IMG/VR virus record: IMGVR_UViG_3300007609_000005
Coordinates: 68,460-132,459 of that record
Direction: 5' to 3' (one strand)
DNA length: 64,000 nucleotides
Source: a virus
In this document: positions 1-28,908 of the stretch, in pieces
How the letters are laid out: every line of letters begins with the position of its first letter
How positions within the stretch are numbered: the first letter of the stretch is position 1
Made by a program: the position numbers and the translations under genes
The notes under the pieces: model-generated
Database searches by the model: none
Seen by the model: the letters and a program-made list of their open reading frames with translations, nothing else
Told to the model about the DNA's origin: nothing

Positions 1-1
1 A

Positions 2-907
2 CAATCTGAACTGGGTGATGATGGTAGAATAGAACGTAGTGGTGAATTTCCAGAGATAAAGACGGGGTGGGGCTGGTTCATAGACATCAAGAACCATATT
101 CCACAGATAAAGGAAAAAATAGAGGAAATAGATTGGAAGCCTGAGAGGTTTAAACAGAATGCACTAAATTGGGCAGATAACATTGAATGGGATTGGTCCA
201 TATCAAGAGAACGGTATTATGGTATTCCGATACCAGGTGAAGAAAGAATGACATTTGACACTTGGTTCATCTCTTCCCTATCGCCACAACTGGCTTGGAA
301 CTCATATACGGGTGATACTAGCCTAGATATCCCTATATTTGATATGAGATACCAAGGACATGATATTATTCGAACATGGGCTTTCTATACGATTGCAATG
401 TCATATTTTTTAAACAATCAAATACCTTGGAAGACACTTATGATAACAGGACATACACTTGATGGTAAGGGAGATAAGTTCTCCAAGTCATCTGGAAATG
501 CCACTGATCCAAGACCATATATCGATAGACACAAACCATCAGGAATAAGATGGTGGGCATGTTCAACAACCTTGGGGAATGATATAAAACTAGATGAGCC
601 AAAGATGAAAATGGGTTGGCGTATTGAGAACAAACTTCTAAACGCCAAGAAATTCATAAAAATGCAAATAGATAATGAGTGGATAGGTGAAGATGAAAGC
701 CTTATGACGGAATATTTAGACCATAAGGATCGGATACTTGAACATTTCGAAAATTATGAACTGGATAAGGCAACTGATCACATATACACATTCTTTTGGA
801 ATATATTCTGTGATAAGTGGATAGAGGCATCCAAGAAAAACCCAACTTCAATAACATTGAATAATATAATTACTGACTTCGAAAAAATAATGAATATCAT
901 ATTATGA
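2..907 (+). CDS. valS: valyl-tRNA synthetase, 5'-truncated by the window edge; minimal form apparently lacking the CP1 editing domain
   Basis: Frame open from nt 2. Motifs DWSISRERYYGIPIP, TFDTWFISS, QGHDIIRTWAFYT, KFSKS and FFWNIFCDKWIEASK. Confidence 0.88.
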   Translation, partial: QSELGDDGRIERSGEFPEIKTGWGWFIDIKNHIPQIKEKIEEIDWKPERFKQNALNWADNIEWDWSISRERYYGIPIPGEERMTFDTWFISSLSPQLAWNSYTGDTSLDIPIFDMRYQGHDIIRTWAFYTIAMSYFLNNQIPWKTLMITGHTLDGKGDKFSKSSGNATDPRPYIDRHKPSGIRWWACSTTLGNDIKLDEPKMKMGWRIENKLLNAKKFIKMQIDNEWIGEDESLMTEYLDHKDRILEHFENYELDKATDHIYTFFWNIFCDKWIEASKKNPTSITLNNIITDFEKIMNIIL

Positions 908-4971: not shown

Positions 4972-4979
4972 TATATTTG
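4972..4979 (+). promoter_or_regulatory. TAnnTTTG promoter of leuS
   Basis: TATATTTG 4 nt before the ATG at 4984. Confidence 0.6.
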
Positions 4980-4983
4980 TAGT

Positions 4984-6264
4984 ATGTCAAAGAATAAAAA
5001 GTATATTAATGTGATGTTCCCATACCCAAGTGGTTCAGGCCTTCACATCGGACATGTTTATAATTATGCAATAATGGATTCCTATTCCAGGTATTGGCGG
5101 TATAGAGGATATGATGTATTTCAACCATTCGGATTTGACTCATTCGGACTTCCTGCCGAAAATTATGCCAAAAAAGTTGGAAGGAAGCCAAGTGAAGTCA
5201 CATATGAGAATATTGAAAACTTCAGAAAACAAATGAGAGACATGAATACTGAATATACTGAGTTGCTAACGACTTCGGATGTTTCATATTATAAATGGAC
5301 ACAGTGGATATTCAGTAAGTTGAGAGAACATGGTTTGGCATACAAAAAAGATGGTGAAGTGAATTGGTGTACATCGTGTGAAACTGTCTTGGCAAGAGAA
5401 CAAGTTAAAGATGGTGTGTGTAAAAGGTGTAGTTCTACCGTGGAAGAGAAGGTAATGAACCAATGGTATTTCAAGATAACCGATTACAAGGACAGGTTGA
5501 TCAAAAATTTGGATCACATCGACTACCCACAATCAACTATCAATGCACAAAGAAATTGGTTGGAGAATTTGCACGATTGGTGTGTTTCAAGACAAAGAAG
5601 TTGGGGATGTCCAATTCCCGTTGAAAATGAAACAGACACATTGGATACATTTGTCGATTCATCTTTCTATTTTGTTCGATATTGTGACCCATTCAATGAT
5701 GAAGAATTGTGTTCAAGAGATAAATACCAACAAGTCGATATGTATGTTGGTGGAAGTGAACACGCCTGTATGCACTTGATATATGCCAGGTTCATTCATA
5801 TGTTCTTGTACGATATTGGTGTTGTCCCGGTCGAAGAACCATTCAAAAGTGTAAGACACCAAGGTATGATATTGAATGATGGTGAAAAGATGTCAAAGTC
5901 AAAAGGAAATACAATAAATCCCGATGATTACGACCCAGATGAGTTGAGAATGTACTTGATGTTCATTGGCCACTATTTCGATGGTGGTTCGTGGTCAGAT
6001 AAGAATATAAAGGGAATTAGACGATTCATCGGCAGGTTTAAGGAATGGATGTCGAGAGAAGGTGATCATGTTATTGACATCGAACCATTCAAAGAGAAAG
6101 TTTTCAATTATACGGAATCTTTCAAATTCAACAAAGTTGTTTCTGAGTATATGACATTGGTGAATAAGAATAGAAAATACAACATAACCCCTGAAGTTAA
6201 AAAAGAATTGACCAATATTTTGAAAATATATATCCCCGGTTTAGAATTGGGTGATGGTGATTAA
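4984..6264 (+). CDS. leuS: minimal leucyl-tRNA synthetase (426 aa; no CP1 editing or C-terminal domain)
   Basis: MFPYPSGSGLHIGH, GFDSFGLPAENYA, YYKWTQWIF, DWCVSRQRSWGCPIP, DTFVDSSFYF, YVGGSEHACMHLIYARF, KMSKS. Confidence 0.95.
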   Translation: MSKNKKYINVMFPYPSGSGLHIGHVYNYAIMDSYSRYWRYRGYDVFQPFGFDSFGLPAENYAKKVGRKPSEVTYENIENFRKQMRDMNTEYTELLTTSDVSYYKWTQWIFSKLREHGLAYKKDGEVNWCTSCETVLAREQVKDGVCKRCSSTVEEKVMNQWYFKITDYKDRLIKNLDHIDYPQSTINAQRNWLENLHDWCVSRQRSWGCPIPVENETDTLDTFVDSSFYFVRYCDPFNDEELCSRDKYQQVDMYVGGSEHACMHLIYARFIHMFLYDIGVVPVEEPFKSVRHQGMILNDGEKMSKSKGNTINPDDYDPDELRMYLMFIGHYFDGGSWSDKNIKGIRRFIGRFKEWMSREGDHVIDIEPFKEKVFNYTESFKFNKVVSEYMTLVNKNRKYNITPEVKKELTNILKIYIPGLELGDGD

Positions 6265-6329
6265 CTTCACTTTATGATTTGGTAATACATATATTTTTCG
6301 TAAATTTACATAAACAAATCAAAAATCAG

Positions 6330-6527
6330 ATGAATATCACAAACGAAAAAATGCTTTCTGATCAAGAAAACTCAAAACTGTGGTTCAATAACTTGACATC
6401 AGGTGAAGAACAAATGTTATTGTATAAATATAATCACAAAAATGCATTCCTATCAACAAAGGAGGTTGAGGAAATGTGGAAATCCGAATTATCTGAATCA
6501 TTGACCAATAGAGTGAATGACATCTGA
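6330..6527 (+). CDS. hypothetical protein
   Basis: Likely start MNITNE after an A-rich leader. Confidence 0.55.
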   Translation: MNITNEKMLSDQENSKLWFNNLTSGEEQMLLYKYNHKNAFLSTKEVEEMWKSELSESLTNRVNDI

Positions 6528-6849
6528 AATTAAAAAAAGTATATTAATATCATTATTCACAACCCAAGGAAATTATGTGAGCAATGATGGTATATTCCGA
6601 GTTGGTCCGGACTTCAAGCCATTTGACATTTTCATATTTCATAAATTAGTGGAAAGCTCAATATTACTTGAGATAAGTACTGGTATTGATGGTTCGGAAA
6701 AAGATACTAAATACAACTGGTGCTATATACTCAACCATAATAGACTTATAGAAAAAATCAAATCAATAGATGAAAAATTTACAGACTATGATTGGAATTA
6801 TCTATTAAGATTGTCAAGGGAAAATAAACTAAACAATATTCTAAGTTGA
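6517..6849 (+). CDS. hypothetical protein with C-terminal tag
   Basis: Ends LSRENKLNNILS. Confidence 0.7.
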   Translation: MTSEIKKSILISLFTTQGNYVSNDGIFRVGPDFKPFDIFIFHKLVESSILLEISTGIDGSEKDTKYNWCYILNHNRLIEKIKSIDEKFTDYDWNYLLRLSRENKLNNILS

Positions 6850-6867
6850 TCATTCAATAATATTTAT

Positions 6868-7269
6868 ATGAGAACAACACCCAAAAATATTAAGAAACTT
6901 GAAAGTAACCAAATATTTGTATTTGGCAGCAACCAATCCGGAAGACATGGGAAAGGTGCTGCGAAAACAGCACTTGGTTGGGGTGCTGTATATGGACAAG
7001 CAGAGGGTTTGCAAGGTAAAACCTATGGAATTCCAAGTAAAGATAAAAGCATAAGACGAACGTTATCCATAGAGGAAATTAAACCTTACGTTGATAGATT
7101 TATAGAATTTGCTGAAACCCACCCCGAACTAACATTCTTAGTAACTGAAATCGGTTGTGGTTTGGCAGGATTAAAGCCCAAGAATGTAGCACCCCTTTTT
7201 ACAGAATGCAAGAATCTTGAAAATGTTTGGCTACCTGCTAGGTTTTGGCATAAGTTAGGTGGAACATAA
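6868..7269 (+). CDS. A1S_2505-family phage protein (macrodomain-like)
   Basis: IFVFGSN..GRHGKGAA, GLQGKTYGIP, FLVTEIGCGLAG signature. Confidence 0.8.
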   Translation: MRTTPKNIKKLESNQIFVFGSNQSGRHGKGAAKTALGWGAVYGQAEGLQGKTYGIPSKDKSIRRTLSIEEIKPYVDRFIEFAETHPELTFLVTEIGCGLAGLKPKNVAPLFTECKNLENVWLPARFWHKLGGT

Positions 7270-7284
7270 TAACATACCCAAAAC

Positions 7285-7293
7285 TAATATATA
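7285..7293 (+). promoter_or_regulatory. putative late promoter TAATATATA
   Basis: 4 nt before the ATG at 7298. Confidence 0.6.
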
Positions 7294-7297
7294 ATCA

Positions 7298-7750
7298 ATG
7301 GATCATATATTAAATTACAATAATTTCCCAATACTTGAACAACGCAACGATGGATTAGTGGCGTATCACGGAACATCTGATAAGAACATCCAAAACATCC
7401 AAAACAATGGATTGAATAAGCCATTTTTAGCAAAAACATATGAATTGGCAGAATATTATGCAGAAGAAGCATGTGATGATATCGGTGGGAATCCAATAAT
7501 TATCGAACTTGTAGTCCCTGATATTTCAAAATTAAGATATGATGGTGCTGCGATGGATGAACCGGTTCTAGTCGATGAAAATACTGTCCAAAAGGAGTTA
7601 GATAAAGCAGAGGAAGAACACCCGGAGTGGGTCAAAGGCGATGTTATTATTATTCCAAGTGATGAGTGGGAATATTCATGGAGAGGTGCAAATTCAATTT
7701 GGTATGATGGTTATATATCAAGTGATAATTTCATTAGTGAATATGACTAA
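7298..7750 (+). CDS. ART-fold (YHGT) putative internal virion protein
   Basis: AYHGTS..NI..I..NGL, FLA...LAEYYA; N-terminus MDHILNYNNF. Confidence 0.55.
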   Translation: MDHILNYNNFPILEQRNDGLVAYHGTSDKNIQNIQNNGLNKPFLAKTYELAEYYAEEACDDIGGNPIIIELVVPDISKLRYDGAAMDEPVLVDENTVQKELDKAEEEHPEWVKGDVIIIPSDEWEYSWRGANSIWYDGYISSDNFISEYD

Positions 7751-20445: not shown

Positions 20446-22326
20446 ATGAGTAAAGAAACAACAATAATAGGAATCGACCTCGGAACAACAAACTCTGCTG
20501 TATCCGTTGTAGAAAATGGAGAATCAGTTATCATACCCAACAGTGAGGGCAAAAGAACTACACCTTCCATTATAGCATTCACCAAAGACGAAAGAAAAGT
20601 TGGTGATTCTGCTAAAAGACAAGCAGTTACCAATCCAGAAAAAACAATCTATTCAATTAAAAGATTTATCGGTAAAGATTTTACAAAATGTAAGGATGAA
20701 GTAAAACGTGTCCCATACAAAGTTACTAAGACCGGTAACAACGTACCTGCTGTATCAATTGATGATAAGAACTATACACCTCAGGAAATTTCTGCAATGG
20801 TCTTACAGAAGATGAAAAAGACCGCAGAGGATTATCTTGGACATGATGTTGAAAGAGCAGTCGTGACAGTACCCGCATATTTTGGGGATGCTGAACGACA
20901 AGCAACAATCGAAGCCGGTGAAATTGCCGGGCTTAAAATTGAGAGAATTATCAATGAACCAACTGCTGCTTCTCTTGCATATGGTCTTGATAAAAAGGCC
21001 AATGATACCAAGATCCTTGTGTTTGACCTTGGTGGCGGAACACATGACGTATCAATCCTTGATATTGGTGATGGTGTATTTGAAGTACTTGCGACCGAAG
21101 GAGATGTTCATTTAGGTGGAGATGATTTTGATAACAAGATTATTGACCATATGGTTAATGATTTCAAATCACAACATAACTTGGATGTATCCAAAGACCC
21201 AATGGCACTACAAAGACTTAAAGAAGCAGCAGAAAAGGCAAAAATTGAGTTATCTTCATCAACATCAACAGATATCAATTTGCCATACTTGATGCCTGGT
21301 TCAGATGGTGTCCCTGTACATTATACATCAACGATGACCAGATCAGACTTTAACAAGATCACATCTGACCTTGTTGACCGAGCAATTTCAAGTGCTAAGA
21401 AAGCACTGAAAGCCAAAAAACTAAAAAAGGATGATATCAGTGAGATTATCCTTGTAGGTGGTTCAACACGAATCCCTGCTATTCAAGAAGCACTTAAAAA
21501 AGAATTCGGCAAAGAACCAAACAAGAGTGTAAATCCCGATGAAGTTGTTGCTATGGGTGCTGCTATTCAAGGTGCTGTACTTACAGGAACAATAAATGAT
21601 GTCCTCTTACTTGATGTAACACCACTCTCACTTGGTATTGAAACAATGGGAGGTGTTTTCACCAAATTGATCGAGGCAAATACAACCATCCCAACAAAGA
21701 AATCAGAAACATTTTCAACGGCTGCTGATAACCAACCATCGGTTGAGGTACATGTTCTTCAAGGAGAAAGACCAATGGCAAAAGATAATAAATCACTTGG
21801 TCGTTTCCACTTAGATGGAATTATGCCTGCCCCAAGAGGAATTCCTCAGATTGAAGTTCTCTTTGATATTGATGCAAACGGAGTCCTATCTGTATCTGCA
21901 AAAGACAATGCATCCGGCAAAGAAAACCAAATCCGTATTGAAGGTGGTTCTCAATTATCAGAAGAAGAAATAGAAAGAATGAAGGCGGAAGCCGAAGAAA
22001 ATGCAGAGGCTGATAGAGTTGAAAAGGAAAAAGTTGATAAATTGAACACTGCAGATACTCTCATCTTCCAAACAGAGAAACAGATCAAGGAATTCGAGGA
22101 CAAACTTGAAGATTCTGATAAAGAAGAACTAAATGAGAAATTGGAAAGCCTCCGTGAATCATATAAATCACAAGATATTGATTCAATAGATGAATCTGTT
22201 GAGGCATTAAACACAACGTGGACATCCATCTCACAAAAATTGTATCAACAAACAGAGTCAACTGATACACCAGGAGAAACCGGTGATGATGACGTAACAG
22301 ATGTTGATTTCGAAGAGGTGAAGTAA
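20446..22326 (+). CDS. dnaK: chaperone DnaK (Hsp70)
   Basis: [42 protein letters not shown]-terminal DVDFEEVK. Confidence 0.99.
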
Positions 22327-26595: not shown

Positions 26596-28812
26596 CTATA
26601 ATTCCAACATAAAAACACTCCCTTCTTCTTTGAATAAATAGTTCTGATATGCATCTTCTGCCAGAAATGGTGTCATTGGTGCTAAGACTCTCAACATCTT
26701 ATCTACACAATTCTTCAAAACATATTGACAATTCCGCCTCTCATTACTATCAAGATCATATTCATATAGGAATGATTTTGTTGCATCGTCAAGGTAGAAA
26801 CTCGACAACTCAGATACCCATGTAACCAATTCTCTTAGTACGAATTTAAATTCATACTCTTCATAATATTTCATAGAATCAACATACATTTTATTTGTCA
26901 TATCCAATACTTTCTTACCTCTATCAGATAAGTCGAGTGTATGGTCAACATCATAGCCATACATATTACCTAATAAGTATTTCATTGTATTTCGTAACTT
27001 GAAGTAATAACTAGCACATGTCTTTAATACATCATCACCGAGTGTTACATCATTCCCATAACTTGTCTGCGCCACCCACAACCTCAACACATCAGTATTG
27101 AACTTATCTTGTACATCTTTTGGATCAACAACATTCTTCATTGATTTACTCATCTTATGACCATTTTGATCAAGAACAAACCCATGTGTAAGAACCTTTT
27201 TATAAGGGGCTTTACCCATCGATGCAACAGATGTTAAGAGAGATGATTGGTACCACCCTCTGAACTGATCAGAGCCTTCGAGGTAGAGGTCTGAAACTTT
27301 ACCATCCATAACAGACAACCAAGACGACCCAGAGTCAAACCACACATCCAACGTATAAGTACATTTTTCCAACCCCATATTATGAAATTCAGTTGGTAGG
27401 AGTTCTTTATCTGTCATAGAAAACCACACATCTGAACCAAGTTCATTAAATAACTTATATAGATGTTTGTAAACTTTATCATCAGTGAATGGGTTTCCGT
27501 CTTTTAAGAAAACTGCCAACGGAAACCCCCATTGTCTTTGCCGGGATAAGCACCAACAATCTCTTCCCCTCAACATATTTGTTAGGCGATTACGCCACCT
27601 TTCTTCGGTCATATCAACACCATCCAATGCCTCTAATGCATCACCACTAAGTCCTTTTAAATCCAAGAAAAATTGTTCGGTCAATCGATAATAAACTGGC
27701 TTTTTTGTTCGCCAATCATGTGGATATGAGTGTGTGTATTCTTCTTTCTTTACCAGCATATCACATTTATCCATATCATCAACTACTTTAACAGAATGAT
27801 CAAGACAAAATGTTCCATCAACCCGACCCCCATTATCAGTAAGATCAACACCACTTAACCCATTCTTCTTACACACTTCGTAATCATCATCACCATGTGC
27901 AGGACACAAATGCACAAGTCCAGTACCACTATCCGCCCTTACAAATTTATCACATAGAACAACACCACGATTGCCAGTAAGTGGATTAGTGTATTCAAGA
28001 CCTTCTAATTTCTCACCCAAATACTCATCAACATCAACACCACTCAATAAATCACATTCTTGATGAAGAACGTAAGTTGTTTGGTTAACTGAAACTTCCT
28101 TATATGATAATTTGGGATTCACACAAACCGCCATATTACCAAGAACAGTCCATGGTTGTGTTGTCCAACATACAAGTTTTCTACCATCATCCAAGTCTAA
28201 CGTAAAATATGCAGATACATCAGTTCGATCTTTATATTCCAACTCAGACTCTGCAAGTACAGTTCTCGTTGATGGTGAATAATGCACTGGTCGAGTGTCC
28301 AGATAAACAAGACCCTTATTCAATAAATCATACAGAAGTCCCAATTGTTTAACTTCATATTCCTTGGAATTTGTCTGATAGTGATTATCCCAATCACCGA
28401 ACACGCCAAGAGATCTGAATGTAGCCATCTGTTTATCCACAAATGAATTTGCCAACTTGTGACACTCTTCCCTTAGTTCGAGTTGTGGTAACCTTTTTTT
28501 AACTTTTTTCTGTACGGCAAGTTCAGTTGGGAGTCCATGACAATCCCACCCGGGTCTGTAATCGACTTTGTACCCACTCATCATTTTATACTTTACAACC
28601 ATATCTTTCAGTACCTTGTTTAGTACATGGCCCACGTGAAGATCACCGTTGGCATATGGTGGTCCATCGTGAAGTAAGAATTCGGTTGAGTTCTTACTAT
28701 TCCTGTTATGTAGAACATCTTTCCACAGTTCTACCATTTCAGGTTCTTTCTTTTTATGTTCCGACCTTTGTGTAAAAGTCGTATCTGGCATATTTAGTTT
28801 TTTTGTTTTCAT
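26596..28812 (-). CDS. ileS: isoleucyl-tRNA synthetase (type 1), C-terminally shortened
   Basis: HDGPPYANGDLHVGH, PGWDCHGLP, WTTQPWT, GTGLVH, WCLSRQRQWG, EGSDQFRGW, KMSKS; start MKTKKLNMP. Confidence 0.97.
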   Translation of the reverse strand: MKTKKLNMPDTTFTQRSEHKKKEPEMVELWKDVLHNRNSKNSTEFLLHDGPPYANGDLHVGHVLNKVLKDMVVKYKMMSGYKVDYRPGWDCHGLPTELAVQKKVKKRLPQLELREECHKLANSFVDKQMATFRSLGVFGDWDNHYQTNSKEYEVKQLGLLYDLLNKGLVYLDTRPVHYSPSTRTVLAESELEYKDRTDVSAYFTLDLDDGRKLVCWTTQPWTVLGNMAVCVNPKLSYKEVSVNQTTYVLHQECDLLSGVDVDEYLGEKLEGLEYTNPLTGNRGVVLCDKFVRADSGTGLVHLCPAHGDDDYEVCKKNGLSGVDLTDNGGRVDGTFCLDHSVKVVDDMDKCDMLVKKEEYTHSYPHDWRTKKPVYYRLTEQFFLDLKGLSGDALEALDGVDMTEERWRNRLTNMLRGRDCWCLSRQRQWGFPLAVFLKDGNPFTDDKVYKHLYKLFNELGSDVWFSMTDKELLPTEFHNMGLEKCTYTLDVWFDSGSSWLSVMDGKVSDLYLEGSDQFRGWYQSSLLTSVASMGKAPYKKVLTHGFVLDQNGHKMSKSMKNVVDPKDVQDKFNTDVLRLWVAQTSYGNDVTLGDDVLKTCASYYFKLRNTMKYLLGNMYGYDVDHTLDLSDRGKKVLDMTNKMYVDSMKYYEEYEFKFVLRELVTWVSELSSFYLDDATKSFLYEYDLDSNERRNCQYVLKNCVDKMLRVLAPMTPFLAEDAYQNYLFKEEGSVFMLEL

Positions 28813-28845
28813 AATTTTAAATTTTGATTTTTGATTTTTTAAAGA

Positions 28846-28878
28846 ATAAAAAACCCAAGGACTTTTGATCCTTGGGTT
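28846..28878 (-). terminator. intrinsic terminator of the ileS attenuator
   Basis: AACCCAAGGA-TCAAAAG-TCCTTGGGTT followed by TTTTATT on the - strand. Confidence 0.85.
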
Positions 28879-28908
28879 GAAAATGGATGGTATGCACAAT
28901 AATTCACA

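Follow-up and report, generated by a model that had tools for sequence, protein, structure and literature searches.

A 426-residue leucyl-tRNA synthetase without an editing domain, encoded by a probable huge phage of Bacteroidota

The subject of this article is the gene for an unusually short leucyl-tRNA synthetase (LeuRS), here termed the mini-LeuRS, found in a virus record of the IMG/VR database (IMGVR_UViG_3300007609_000005). The stretch analysed, referred to as the window, consists of 64,000 nt and corresponds to bases 68460-132459 of this 132,459-bp record (contig G000; 30-37% G+C), the completeness of which was estimated by CheckV at about half. Translation of the gene gives an open reading frame (ORF) with an ATG start, 426 codons and a stop (Table 1). 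Its product is a bacterial-type LeuRS that has lost the CP1 editing domain and the C-terminal domain. It retains, in conserved form, the Rossmann-fold core, the ZN1 module, the KMSKS loop and four of the helices that make up the anticodon-binding domain. We judge it rather probable that the gene encodes a working, minimal, editing-free and self-sufficient LeuRS of a huge soil phage, the host of which probably belongs to the Bacteroidota.

What the mini-LeuRS keeps and what it has lost

The losses were mapped in an alignment (A1) of the mini-LeuRS with five members of its own family, six CP1-less LeuRS of 569-653 amino acids (aa) and four full-length LeuRS, with gap sizes measured against the 811-aa LeuRS of C. 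kluyveri (P0184). Relative to this enzyme, the mini-LeuRS is without 25 N-terminal aa, the whole of CP1 including both linker strands (185 aa, P0184 223-407; 195 aa relative to P0128), a ZN2-like insert of 52 aa (426-477; 52-54 aa in P0184, P0128, P0245 and P0248), 14 + 8 aa within the anticodon-binding domain, and the last 87 aa (69 + 18), which comprise one helix of the anticodon-binding domain and the C-terminal tRNA-elbow domain. The CP1 insert of the full-length enzymes falls after residue 195, where the three residues L-E-N (193-195) stand, and the ZN2-like insert falls after residue 213. The segments QRNW(192)-LEN-LHDW(199)CVSRQ and GCPIP(212)-V-ENETDTLDTF are contiguous.

An earlier reading of this DNA, made from the sequence only, had described a 426-aa protein with intact HIGH (21-24) and KMSKS (302-306) motifs, a wholly absent CP1 and uninterrupted QRNW and GCPIP junctions. 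All of this agrees with the translation, with conservation across 59 aligned sequences and with the 185-195-aa gap in A1. Its list of losses was correct for CP1 and for the deletion on the GCPIP side. A1 revealed three further losses that it had omitted, those of the N-terminal helix, of the final helix of the anticodon domain and of the C-terminal domain, the last of which carries the most weight for the mechanism. The residues N-D-G-E at 298-301 replace the leucine-specific domain, and because the closest full-length relatives in A1 share the same short form, this is not a loss peculiar to the mini-LeuRS.

Among family models the best match was TIGR00396 leuS_bact (417.6 bits, E 9.7e-125), with other synthetase models (ValRS, IleRS, MetRS) reaching at most 150 bits and the next best, ValRS, 149 bits. 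In Pfam, tRNA-synt_1 and tRNA-synt_1g were matched, and there was no match to PF13603 (editing) or PF08264 (anticodon). Four helices (residues 339-413) superpose on the anticodon-binding domain up to T. thermophilus residue 795, the last helix being missing. The best solved relative by sequence was the LeuRS of M. mobile (3ziu, E 7.5e-89), followed by that of T. thermophilus. The leucine-pocket residues of T. thermophilus LeuRS (M40, F41, Y43, D80, F501, Y507, E540, H541 and H545) correspond in the alignment to M11, F12, Y14, D52, F223, Y229, E259, H260 and H264 of the mini-LeuRS, and all of these positions are invariant or nearly so in the 59-sequence alignment.

The AF2 model built on that alignment is of high confidence (pLDDT 91.8, pTM 0.91). 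Using VIA-align, it was superposed on T. thermophilus LeuRS (Z 38.1, root mean square deviation 2.4 A, 425 aligned residues, chain 27-795 of 878), on M. mobile LeuRS 3ziu (Z 37.6, 1.9 A, 426 aligned residues, chain 33-556; TMq 0.91 in structure search) and on the E. coli LeuRS-tRNA aminoacylation complex 4aq7 (Z 34.9, chain 30-778 of 860). The comparison with the E. coli and T. thermophilus enzymes, which the sequence-only reading had proposed, confirmed the absence of CP1, with superposition over 425-426 of the 426 residues. The parallel it had drawn with M. mobile LeuRS is likewise sound, that enzyme being the closest solved relative by sequence and a top structural match.

The mini-LeuRS belongs to a family of uniform length. 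A search of 5.8 billion proteins returned 7911 proteins at E<=0.001 among the 8000 scored, and the best 120 clusters listed (at 90% identity) were all of 385-472 aa, 69-81% identical to the query when its own cluster is set aside, and located on contigs of up to 779,616 bp. After clustering at 50%, little more than a single representative (P0241, 429 aa) and some fragments were left of the family, and every other strong match at this level was either a full-size LeuRS or a CP1-less form of 530-706 aa. A copy with 79% identity occurs in the published uncultured huge phage LR745206 (634,780 bp). In IMG/VR viral contigs the mini gene was present at 33 of the 38 loci found, as a single ORF in 32 of the 33, and five of the records carrying it are of 452-519 kb and rated 97-100% complete. 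When prokaryotic genomes were scanned, one for each species, the best 80 loci contained only ordinary LeuRS, with at most 54% identity over residues ~2-193. No member of the mini family appeared among these cellular loci, where one of 60-80% identity would have ranked first.

Relative to 25 relatives, synonymous sites are saturated (pS 0.70-0.88) and pN is 0.14-0.28; the median dN/dS is 0.13 and the maximum 0.24 (75 of 325 pairs, those with 0.05<dS<2). The mini-LeuRS is under strong purifying selection and is not decaying. A metagenomic member of 813 aa (P0122) carries an intein with Hint and LAGLIDADG parts between KMSK and S of the KMSKS motif, the intein ending in HN before the S, which fits a site held constant by function. 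A decaying gene fragment or an assembly artefact is accordingly a most improbable explanation. It could draw on the score below the curated LeuRS cut-off and on one locus (L036) where the gene is split into two ORFs, but length and junctions are the same in all 120 listed clusters and at 32 of the 33 mini loci of viral contigs, dN/dS is 0.13, and the AF2 model is confident and compact. The sequence-only reading had argued that deletions at domain boundaries speak against decay, and alignment, purifying selection and structural superposition uphold this.

Leucine tRNAs, leucine codons and avoidance of the cognate amino acid

The surroundings of the gene were searched for tRNAs with ARAGORN in the 8-kb flanks of the 38 loci. 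Leucine accounted for 33 of the 122 tRNAs called (28 of 107 when the duplicate locus L028 is dropped), compared with 9.6% among 251 tRNAs of five relatives (P 6e-7, a value that ignores relatedness). The nearest same-strand upstream tRNA within 2 kb was tRNA-Leu at five of seven distinct loci (P 1.4e-4, again ignoring relatedness). Arrays of tRNA-Leu genes lie directly upstream on the same strand at L010, L013 (seven in a row), L014, L027 (=L028), L029 and L034, and tRNAs of any kind are present in the flanks of 12 of the 33 mini loci. A search for tRNA-Leu genes, also proposed by the earlier reading, failed in the contig itself and succeeded in all five near-complete relatives, each of which has 4-6 tRNA-Leu genes including tRNA-Leu(CAA). 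In the 735-kb phage LR756501, a different LeuRS gene is situated ~800 nt downstream of five tRNA-Leu genes. The discriminator base is A in 26 of 27 flank tRNA-Leu. The identity of E. coli tRNA-Leu resides in A73 and the D/T-loop core; neither the anticodon nor the long arm determines it, and tRNAs lacking both the anticodon and the variable arm are still substrates (PMC9976931). Together with the A73 of the flank tRNAs, this favours a mechanism in which the core alone is sufficient.

Some of these tRNAs are of unusual shape. Short tRNA-Leu of 74-77 nt (anticodons taa, caa and tag) with a 4-5-nt variable loop were found at L010, L013, L014, L027, L029, L052, L055, L060 and L076; of the 27 flank tRNA-Leu listed, 10 are short. 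Some have a tRNA-Leu-like D arm, others resemble ordinary class I tRNAs, and an intermediate of 81 nt also occurs; L013 also has one tRNA-Tyr of 73 nt. The short form was considered as an obligatory substrate and rejected, since every tRNA-Leu in the covered parts of relatives G003 and G005 (47 of 55 and 55 of 62 tRNAs) is long. The relatives G001-G005 also contain, beside normal tRNAs of 72-77 nt, tRNAs of 83-92 nt with a stem-loop variable arm (class II shape) and anticodons for Lys, Glu, Ile, Asn, Thr, Met, Gln, His, Trp, Arg, Gly or Cys. The toxins AbiEii and MenT3 favour class II tRNAs, according to a preprint, and this suggests that the short-arm tRNA-Leu may represent an escape from toxins with such a preference.

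The leucine codons of the mini-LeuRS gene are nearly uniform. TTG accounts for 19 of the 23, compared with 24% in 171 ORFs of the contig (P 6e-9), which is the top share among 141 genes, and Leu is the only strongly deviant codon family of 18 (G 37.1, P 6e-7). Foreign codon usage was rejected as the cause of this bias, as only Leu and, weakly, Phe deviate among the 18 families; the Phe codons are skewed to TTC (18 of 23, versus 46% in the genome, P 1.3e-3). Of the 27 family genes whose leucine codons were counted, four use TTG exclusively (100%) and another six have a TTG share of 0.9 or above. At L013, the sole locus to have a tRNA-Leu(CAG), it is CTG that makes up 19 of 20 Leu codons. Leucine starvation of E. 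coli affects UUG and UUA less than the other leucine codons (PMC3783181).

Depletion of the cognate amino acid was scored over 122 ORFs of the contig and 20 amino acids (2440 tests). The top three depletions were Ile in IleRS (4 versus 60 expected, the strongest of all), Asn in AsnRS (0 versus 25) and Val in ValRS (1 versus 25), with Gln in GlnRS ranking seventh (1 versus 14). These are the other synthetases found on the contig, and each avoids its own amino acid; the mini-LeuRS is only mildly depleted in Leu (23 versus 33 expected, P 0.034). The LeuRS of LR756501 has no Leu in 508 aa (P 5e-19). A synthetase that is free of its cognate amino acid, or encodes it by one sheltered codon, would make sense if its job were to restore that very charged tRNA. 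The sequence-only reading had left three functions open for the protein (error-prone, specific for phage tRNAs or repurposed). Taken together, three independent lines of evidence, namely gene order, codon use and cognate avoidance, favour a role in tRNA-Leu charging tied to the tRNAs of the phage, and the codon and amino-acid design of phage synthetase genes points to a general rule of self-sufficient expression.

With regard to the other synthetases themselves, the IleRS (767 aa) scores 690 bits against TIGR00392, above the cut-off, and ends at profile position 802 of 861. The AsnRS (388 aa, no Asn) and the GlnRS (522 aa, one Gln) are encoded outside the window. The ValRS, of 456 aa, is itself a reduced enzyme (mini-ValRS): its best family is PRK13208 (347 bits versus a cut-off of 738), ~36 residues stand in place of the T. 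thermophilus ValRS CP1 (residues ~190-377), the anticodon domain is truncated and the C-terminal coiled coil is absent. An ortholog of 48% identity was found in G003 only. In the same phage, CP1 has been kept in IleRS and dropped from ValRS.

The missing tail, rival explanations and a possible phage leucylation module

In the mechanism that we propose, the mini-LeuRS would activate leucine with ATP and transfer it to the 3' end of tRNA-Leu, mainly of the phage's own tRNA-Leu set. Recognition of tRNA-Leu would be accomplished by the core, via the acceptor end and A73, with no contact to the elbow through a C-terminal domain and no post-transfer proofreading. The gene itself, having few leucines and nearly all of them as TTG, would be translatable when charged tRNA-Leu is scarce, these codons being read by phage tRNA-Leu(CAA), and the enzyme could in this way keep leucylation going, or set it going again, in the late phase of infection or during host shut-off.

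A number of observations weigh against this proposal. The TIGR00396 score lies below the curated cut-off of 548.4. The LeuRS of T. thermophilus and that of E. coli no longer aminoacylate once the C-terminal domain has been deleted, and in an M. tuberculosis construct this deletion reduces tRNA binding to ~30% (PMC3561953). No detached C-terminal domain was found at E<=1 in the five relatives G001-G005 using a full-length LeuRS as query, nor in six-frame translations of the contig and the complete relative G004 using a profile built from the C-terminal 95 aa of 111 LeuRS (best E 0.68). The link at the CP1 scar is of three residues, as against an M. mobile nonapeptide that matters for activity. 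No RNA run is listed as containing the mini-LeuRS stretch; one DNA read set does contain it, is possibly the source sample, and so adds no support against an artefact. TTG monotony is weak or absent in eight of the 27 family genes, the share being at most 0.37 with mixed Leu codons at L015, L025, L026, L027, L030 and L037 and 0.10 at L039 and L045. There is no flank tRNA at 21 of the 33 mini loci, the flank tRNA counts are phylogenetically non-independent, and no tRNA-Leu was found in the mini-LeuRS contig, which has a single tRNA (Met, outside the window) and is about half complete.

The absent tail leads to the first of two rival explanations, namely that the protein activates leucine and no longer charges tRNA, forming the adenylate for some other acceptor or serving as a sensor or regulator of leucine or tRNA-Leu. 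The model for this would be the Sulfolobaceae LeuRS-I, which forms the adenylate and binds tRNA-Leu, yet carries out no aminoacylation (PMC9437257). The rival gains from the loss of a tail that the E. coli and T. thermophilus enzymes need, with no copy found in trans, and from known LeuRS paralogs that adenylate without charging or charge at a very low level (PMC9437257). It also gains from one sublineage in which the mini gene is fused to, or lies beside, a gene for a PCMT-like methyltransferase. That fusion (P0121) was rejected as a functional clue, as it is confined to one 90% cluster and the two parts are split (adjacent) in the other members. Adjacency to tRNA-Leu arrays, moreover, recurs in two very distant lineages, and cognate avoidance is also shown by the IleRS, GlnRS and AsnRS of the contig, which look ordinary and score above a curated cut-off, so that the signature is tied to the supply of charged tRNA. 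Nor is there a conserved neighbour that might be the alternative acceptor: BLASTP of the ORFs in the initial 16 kb of the window against the regions flanking the 38 loci, together with all-against-all clustering, did not find neighbours common to the whole family, and synteny around the mini gene is limited to one subgroup of nine loci. We regard this explanation as unlikely.

Arc1p serves the MetRS and GluRS of yeast as a tRNA-binding helper in trans. A comparable arrangement is the second rival: a real LeuRS that needs a separate tRNA binder of phage or host, of Trbp111 type or another synthetase, in place of its C-terminal domain. Stand-alone tRNA_bind (PF01588, Trbp111-like) ORFs of 118 and 121 aa were found in two of the four near-complete relatives searched (G003 and G005), and a shared helper would be economical, as the ValRS of the same phage is without the equivalent parts. 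On the other hand, PF01588 was not found in G001, G004 or the mini-LeuRS contig, the ORF is not adjacent to the mini gene (~10 kb away in G003), and no neighbour is conserved across the family. Such a helper seems less probable still than a protein confined to adenylation.

For the lost editing domain, the precedent is M. mobile LeuRS, which works without CP1 and without the leucine-specific domain (PMC3643597); in M. mobile itself, up to ~1 in 200 Leu codons are mistranslated, according to a paraphrase in PMC3553970. The sequence-only reading had raised a stand-alone editing domain encoded elsewhere, and none turned up in the six-frame translations of the contig and G004 or, at E<=1, in G001-G005; CP1/PF13603 in the contig matched only the IleRS. 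By analogy, the phage mini-LeuRS should be without post-transfer editing.

The preferred reading, a working and self-sufficient LeuRS, can be extended to a self-contained leucylation module of huge phages, although we offer this extension tentatively and with distinctly less confidence. The module would consist of a core-only LeuRS, the smallest in nature, and phage tRNA-Leu arrays, which in many relatives include arm-less tRNA-Leu, with recognition through A73, the acceptor end and the D/T core. The mRNA would be written in one dedicated Leu codon (for the CAA tRNA mostly, for the CAG tRNA at L013), and the module would bootstrap itself when the charged tRNA-Leu of the host collapses, for example under toxins of the Abi/MenT type. 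The mini-ValRS would follow the same design rule.

If the mini-LeuRS does charge tRNA, it would be the smallest natural LeuRS, ~210 aa under the published minimum, and a bacterial-type LeuRS could then dispense with both the editing domain and the C-terminal domain, the latter being thought essential in E. coli and T. thermophilus. Minimal tRNA-Leu recognition, the tolerance of phages for mistranslation and the translation of huge phages during host shut-off would all become testable. Compact synthetase-tRNA pairs of this kind would also be candidate orthogonal pairs for genetic-code engineering.

Related enzymes, origin and features of the locus

The mini-LeuRS, a descendant of bacterial LeuRS, and the M. 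mobile LeuRS (3ZIU, 637 aa, described as 'exceptionally small' in PMC3643597) share a bacterial-type core and the absence of CP1, and both have replaced the leucine-specific domain by four residues (GKDG in M. mobile, NDGE in the phage protein). The phage protein is, however, 211 aa shorter. In it the ZN2-like insert and the C-terminal domain have gone as well, together with the N-terminal helix and the final helix of the anticodon domain, and its three-residue scar stands where M. mobile has the functional nonapeptide KEEIDGKIT. It is also phage-borne and not a cell's only LeuRS, unlike that of M. mobile. Metagenomic LeuRS of 569-653 aa (P0245, P0253, P0250, P0248, P0267 and P0371) are CP1-less as well and are known from short contigs; they differ in having retained the ZN2-like insert, the C-terminal domain and an Anticodon_1 domain that Pfam detects. 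A further comparison is offered by the 508-aa LeuRS of LR756501 (locus L076, LR756501.1 185955-199463 reverse complement, gene 5986-7509). It too is without CP1 and the C-terminal domain, has the same end helix and, as in the mini family, adjoins a tRNA-Leu array that includes a short-arm tRNA-Leu. At 35% identity it differs in having kept the ZN2-like insert, lost the ZN1 cysteines and in having KMSKN. It also avoids leucine entirely, as seen in IHMGH, FGMPAEN and KMSKN, where the mini-LeuRS uses one codon.

Mitochondrial LeuRS keeps CP1 and the C-terminal domain. Among organelles, a human mitochondrial tRNA-Leu(UUR) without a long arm retains A73 as leucine determinant (PMC9976931), and the mitochondrial AlaRS of C. 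elegans, with a residual C-Ala domain, is a reduced synthetase paired with a tRNA of altered shape (PMC8887476); both systems are organellar and not viral. Sulfolobaceae LeuRS-I and haloarchaeal LeuRS2 are additional copies of LeuRS whose editing is impaired or absent and whose C-termini are altered, but these are archaeal-type, full-size and cellular, and they reportedly charge tRNA barely or not at all (PMC9437257). LeuRS has also been stripped down by engineering, in the LeuAC urzyme and in an E. coli CP1/anticodon-domain deletion from a mutant leuS plasmid (bioRxiv 10.1101/2025.04.05.647346). The LeuAC urzyme is a far smaller laboratory construct from an archaeal enzyme. The phage protein, in contrast, occurs in nature, where purifying selection acts on it, and it has retained ZN1, the KMSKS region and some of the anticodon domain. 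JGI already labels members of the family 'leucyl-tRNA synthetase'; the truncation itself is not previously described in the literature searched. No description of a truncated phage LeuRS or an arm-less phage tRNA-Leu was found there, although the supplementary tables of a huge-phage survey may list such genes; that survey reports up to 15 synthetases per huge phage and its main text, as far as consulted, leaves truncation unmentioned (Al-Shayeb et al. 2020, PMC7162821).

A quick maximum-likelihood tree was calculated from rows hand-picked from the match lists (56 rows, 425 columns, LG+G4, SH-aLRT only). The 14 mini sequences formed one group (support 100) on a long stem, and their sister group was the pair of CP1-less LeuRS P0245 and P0253 (569 and 580 aa; SH-aLRT 92), which still have the ZN2-like insert, the anticodon domain and the C-terminal domain. 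This suggests a stepwise reduction in which CP1 would have been lost first and the other parts later. Both groups lie near LeuRS whose source records name Patescibacteria, Gracilibacteria and Peregrinibacteria (support 90, drawn open). CP1 loss has been recurrent, as at least five changes are needed on the tree. The LR756501 LeuRS was placed apart from the mini family, and a grouping with it was not rejected (AU p 0.26).

Upstream of the gene there is an octamer, TATATTTG, which by its sequence would be a candidate promoter element of a nearly leaderless mini-LeuRS mRNA. It has 20 sites in the window versus 9.9 expected, and none of 100 shuffles reached 20. Around the mini-LeuRS gene, a promoter and terminator scan found neither an excess of the sigma-70 type nor an intrinsic terminator. 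A leader-peptide attenuator was also considered and rejected, there being no room for it in the 52-nt intergenic stretch next to a divergent upstream gene.

Table 1. Positions of the mini-LeuRS gene, its parts and other features (window numbering unless a contig or locus is named)
Feature	Position	Strand	Basis
mini-LeuRS gene	4984..6264	+	ORF; leuS_bact E 9.7e-125; AF2 pLDDT 91.8; VIA-align Z 38.1 / 37.6
HIGH motif, H21-I-G-H24	5044..5055	+	H21 and G23 invariant, H24 nearly so (59 sequences)
ZN1 module, C129 C132 C146 C149	5368..5430	+	cysteines nearly invariant (59-sequence alignment)
CP1 deletion scar, W192-L-E-N-L-H-D-W199	5557..5580	+	alignment with full-length LeuRS
ZN2-like insert deletion scar, P210-I-P-V-E-N-E-T217	5611..5634	+	alignment with full-length LeuRS
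KMSKS motif, K302-S306, preceded by short N-D-G-E	5887..5901	+	K302, M303 and K305 invariant (59 sequences)
Anticodon-binding domain remnant, four helices, residues 339-413	5998..6222	+	DSSP of the model; structural alignment
TATATTTG box, 4 nt before the ATG	4972..4979	+	candidate promoter element, inferred from the sequence
mini-ValRS, start 463 nt before the window	1-907 (G000:C1:67996-69363; L002:1456-2826)	+	PRK13208
DnaK	20446-22326	+	PRK00290
IleRS	26596-28899	-	TIGR00392
GlnRS, outside the window	G000:C1:958-2523 (L198)	+	
AsnRS, outside the window	G000:C1:8954-10117 (L198)	-	
ORF with T9SS type A sorting domain	G000:C1:42736-43872 (L199:736-1872)	+	28.1 bits, cut-off 23
tRNA_bind (PF01588) ORF in G003	G003:C1:102849-103121	+	
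tRNA_bind (PF01588) ORF in G005	G005:C1:290795-291028	-	
Class II-shaped tRNAs, examples	G001:C1:219872-219959, 231626-231712, 255781-255866, 257011-257097		

The octamer TATATTTG fits the Bacteroidetes promoter box, TAnnTTTG, and one ORF of the contig ends in a T9SS type A sorting domain; these may be read as two hints of a Bacteroidota host. The phage also encodes a full-length DnaK, which scores 948 bits against PRK00290.

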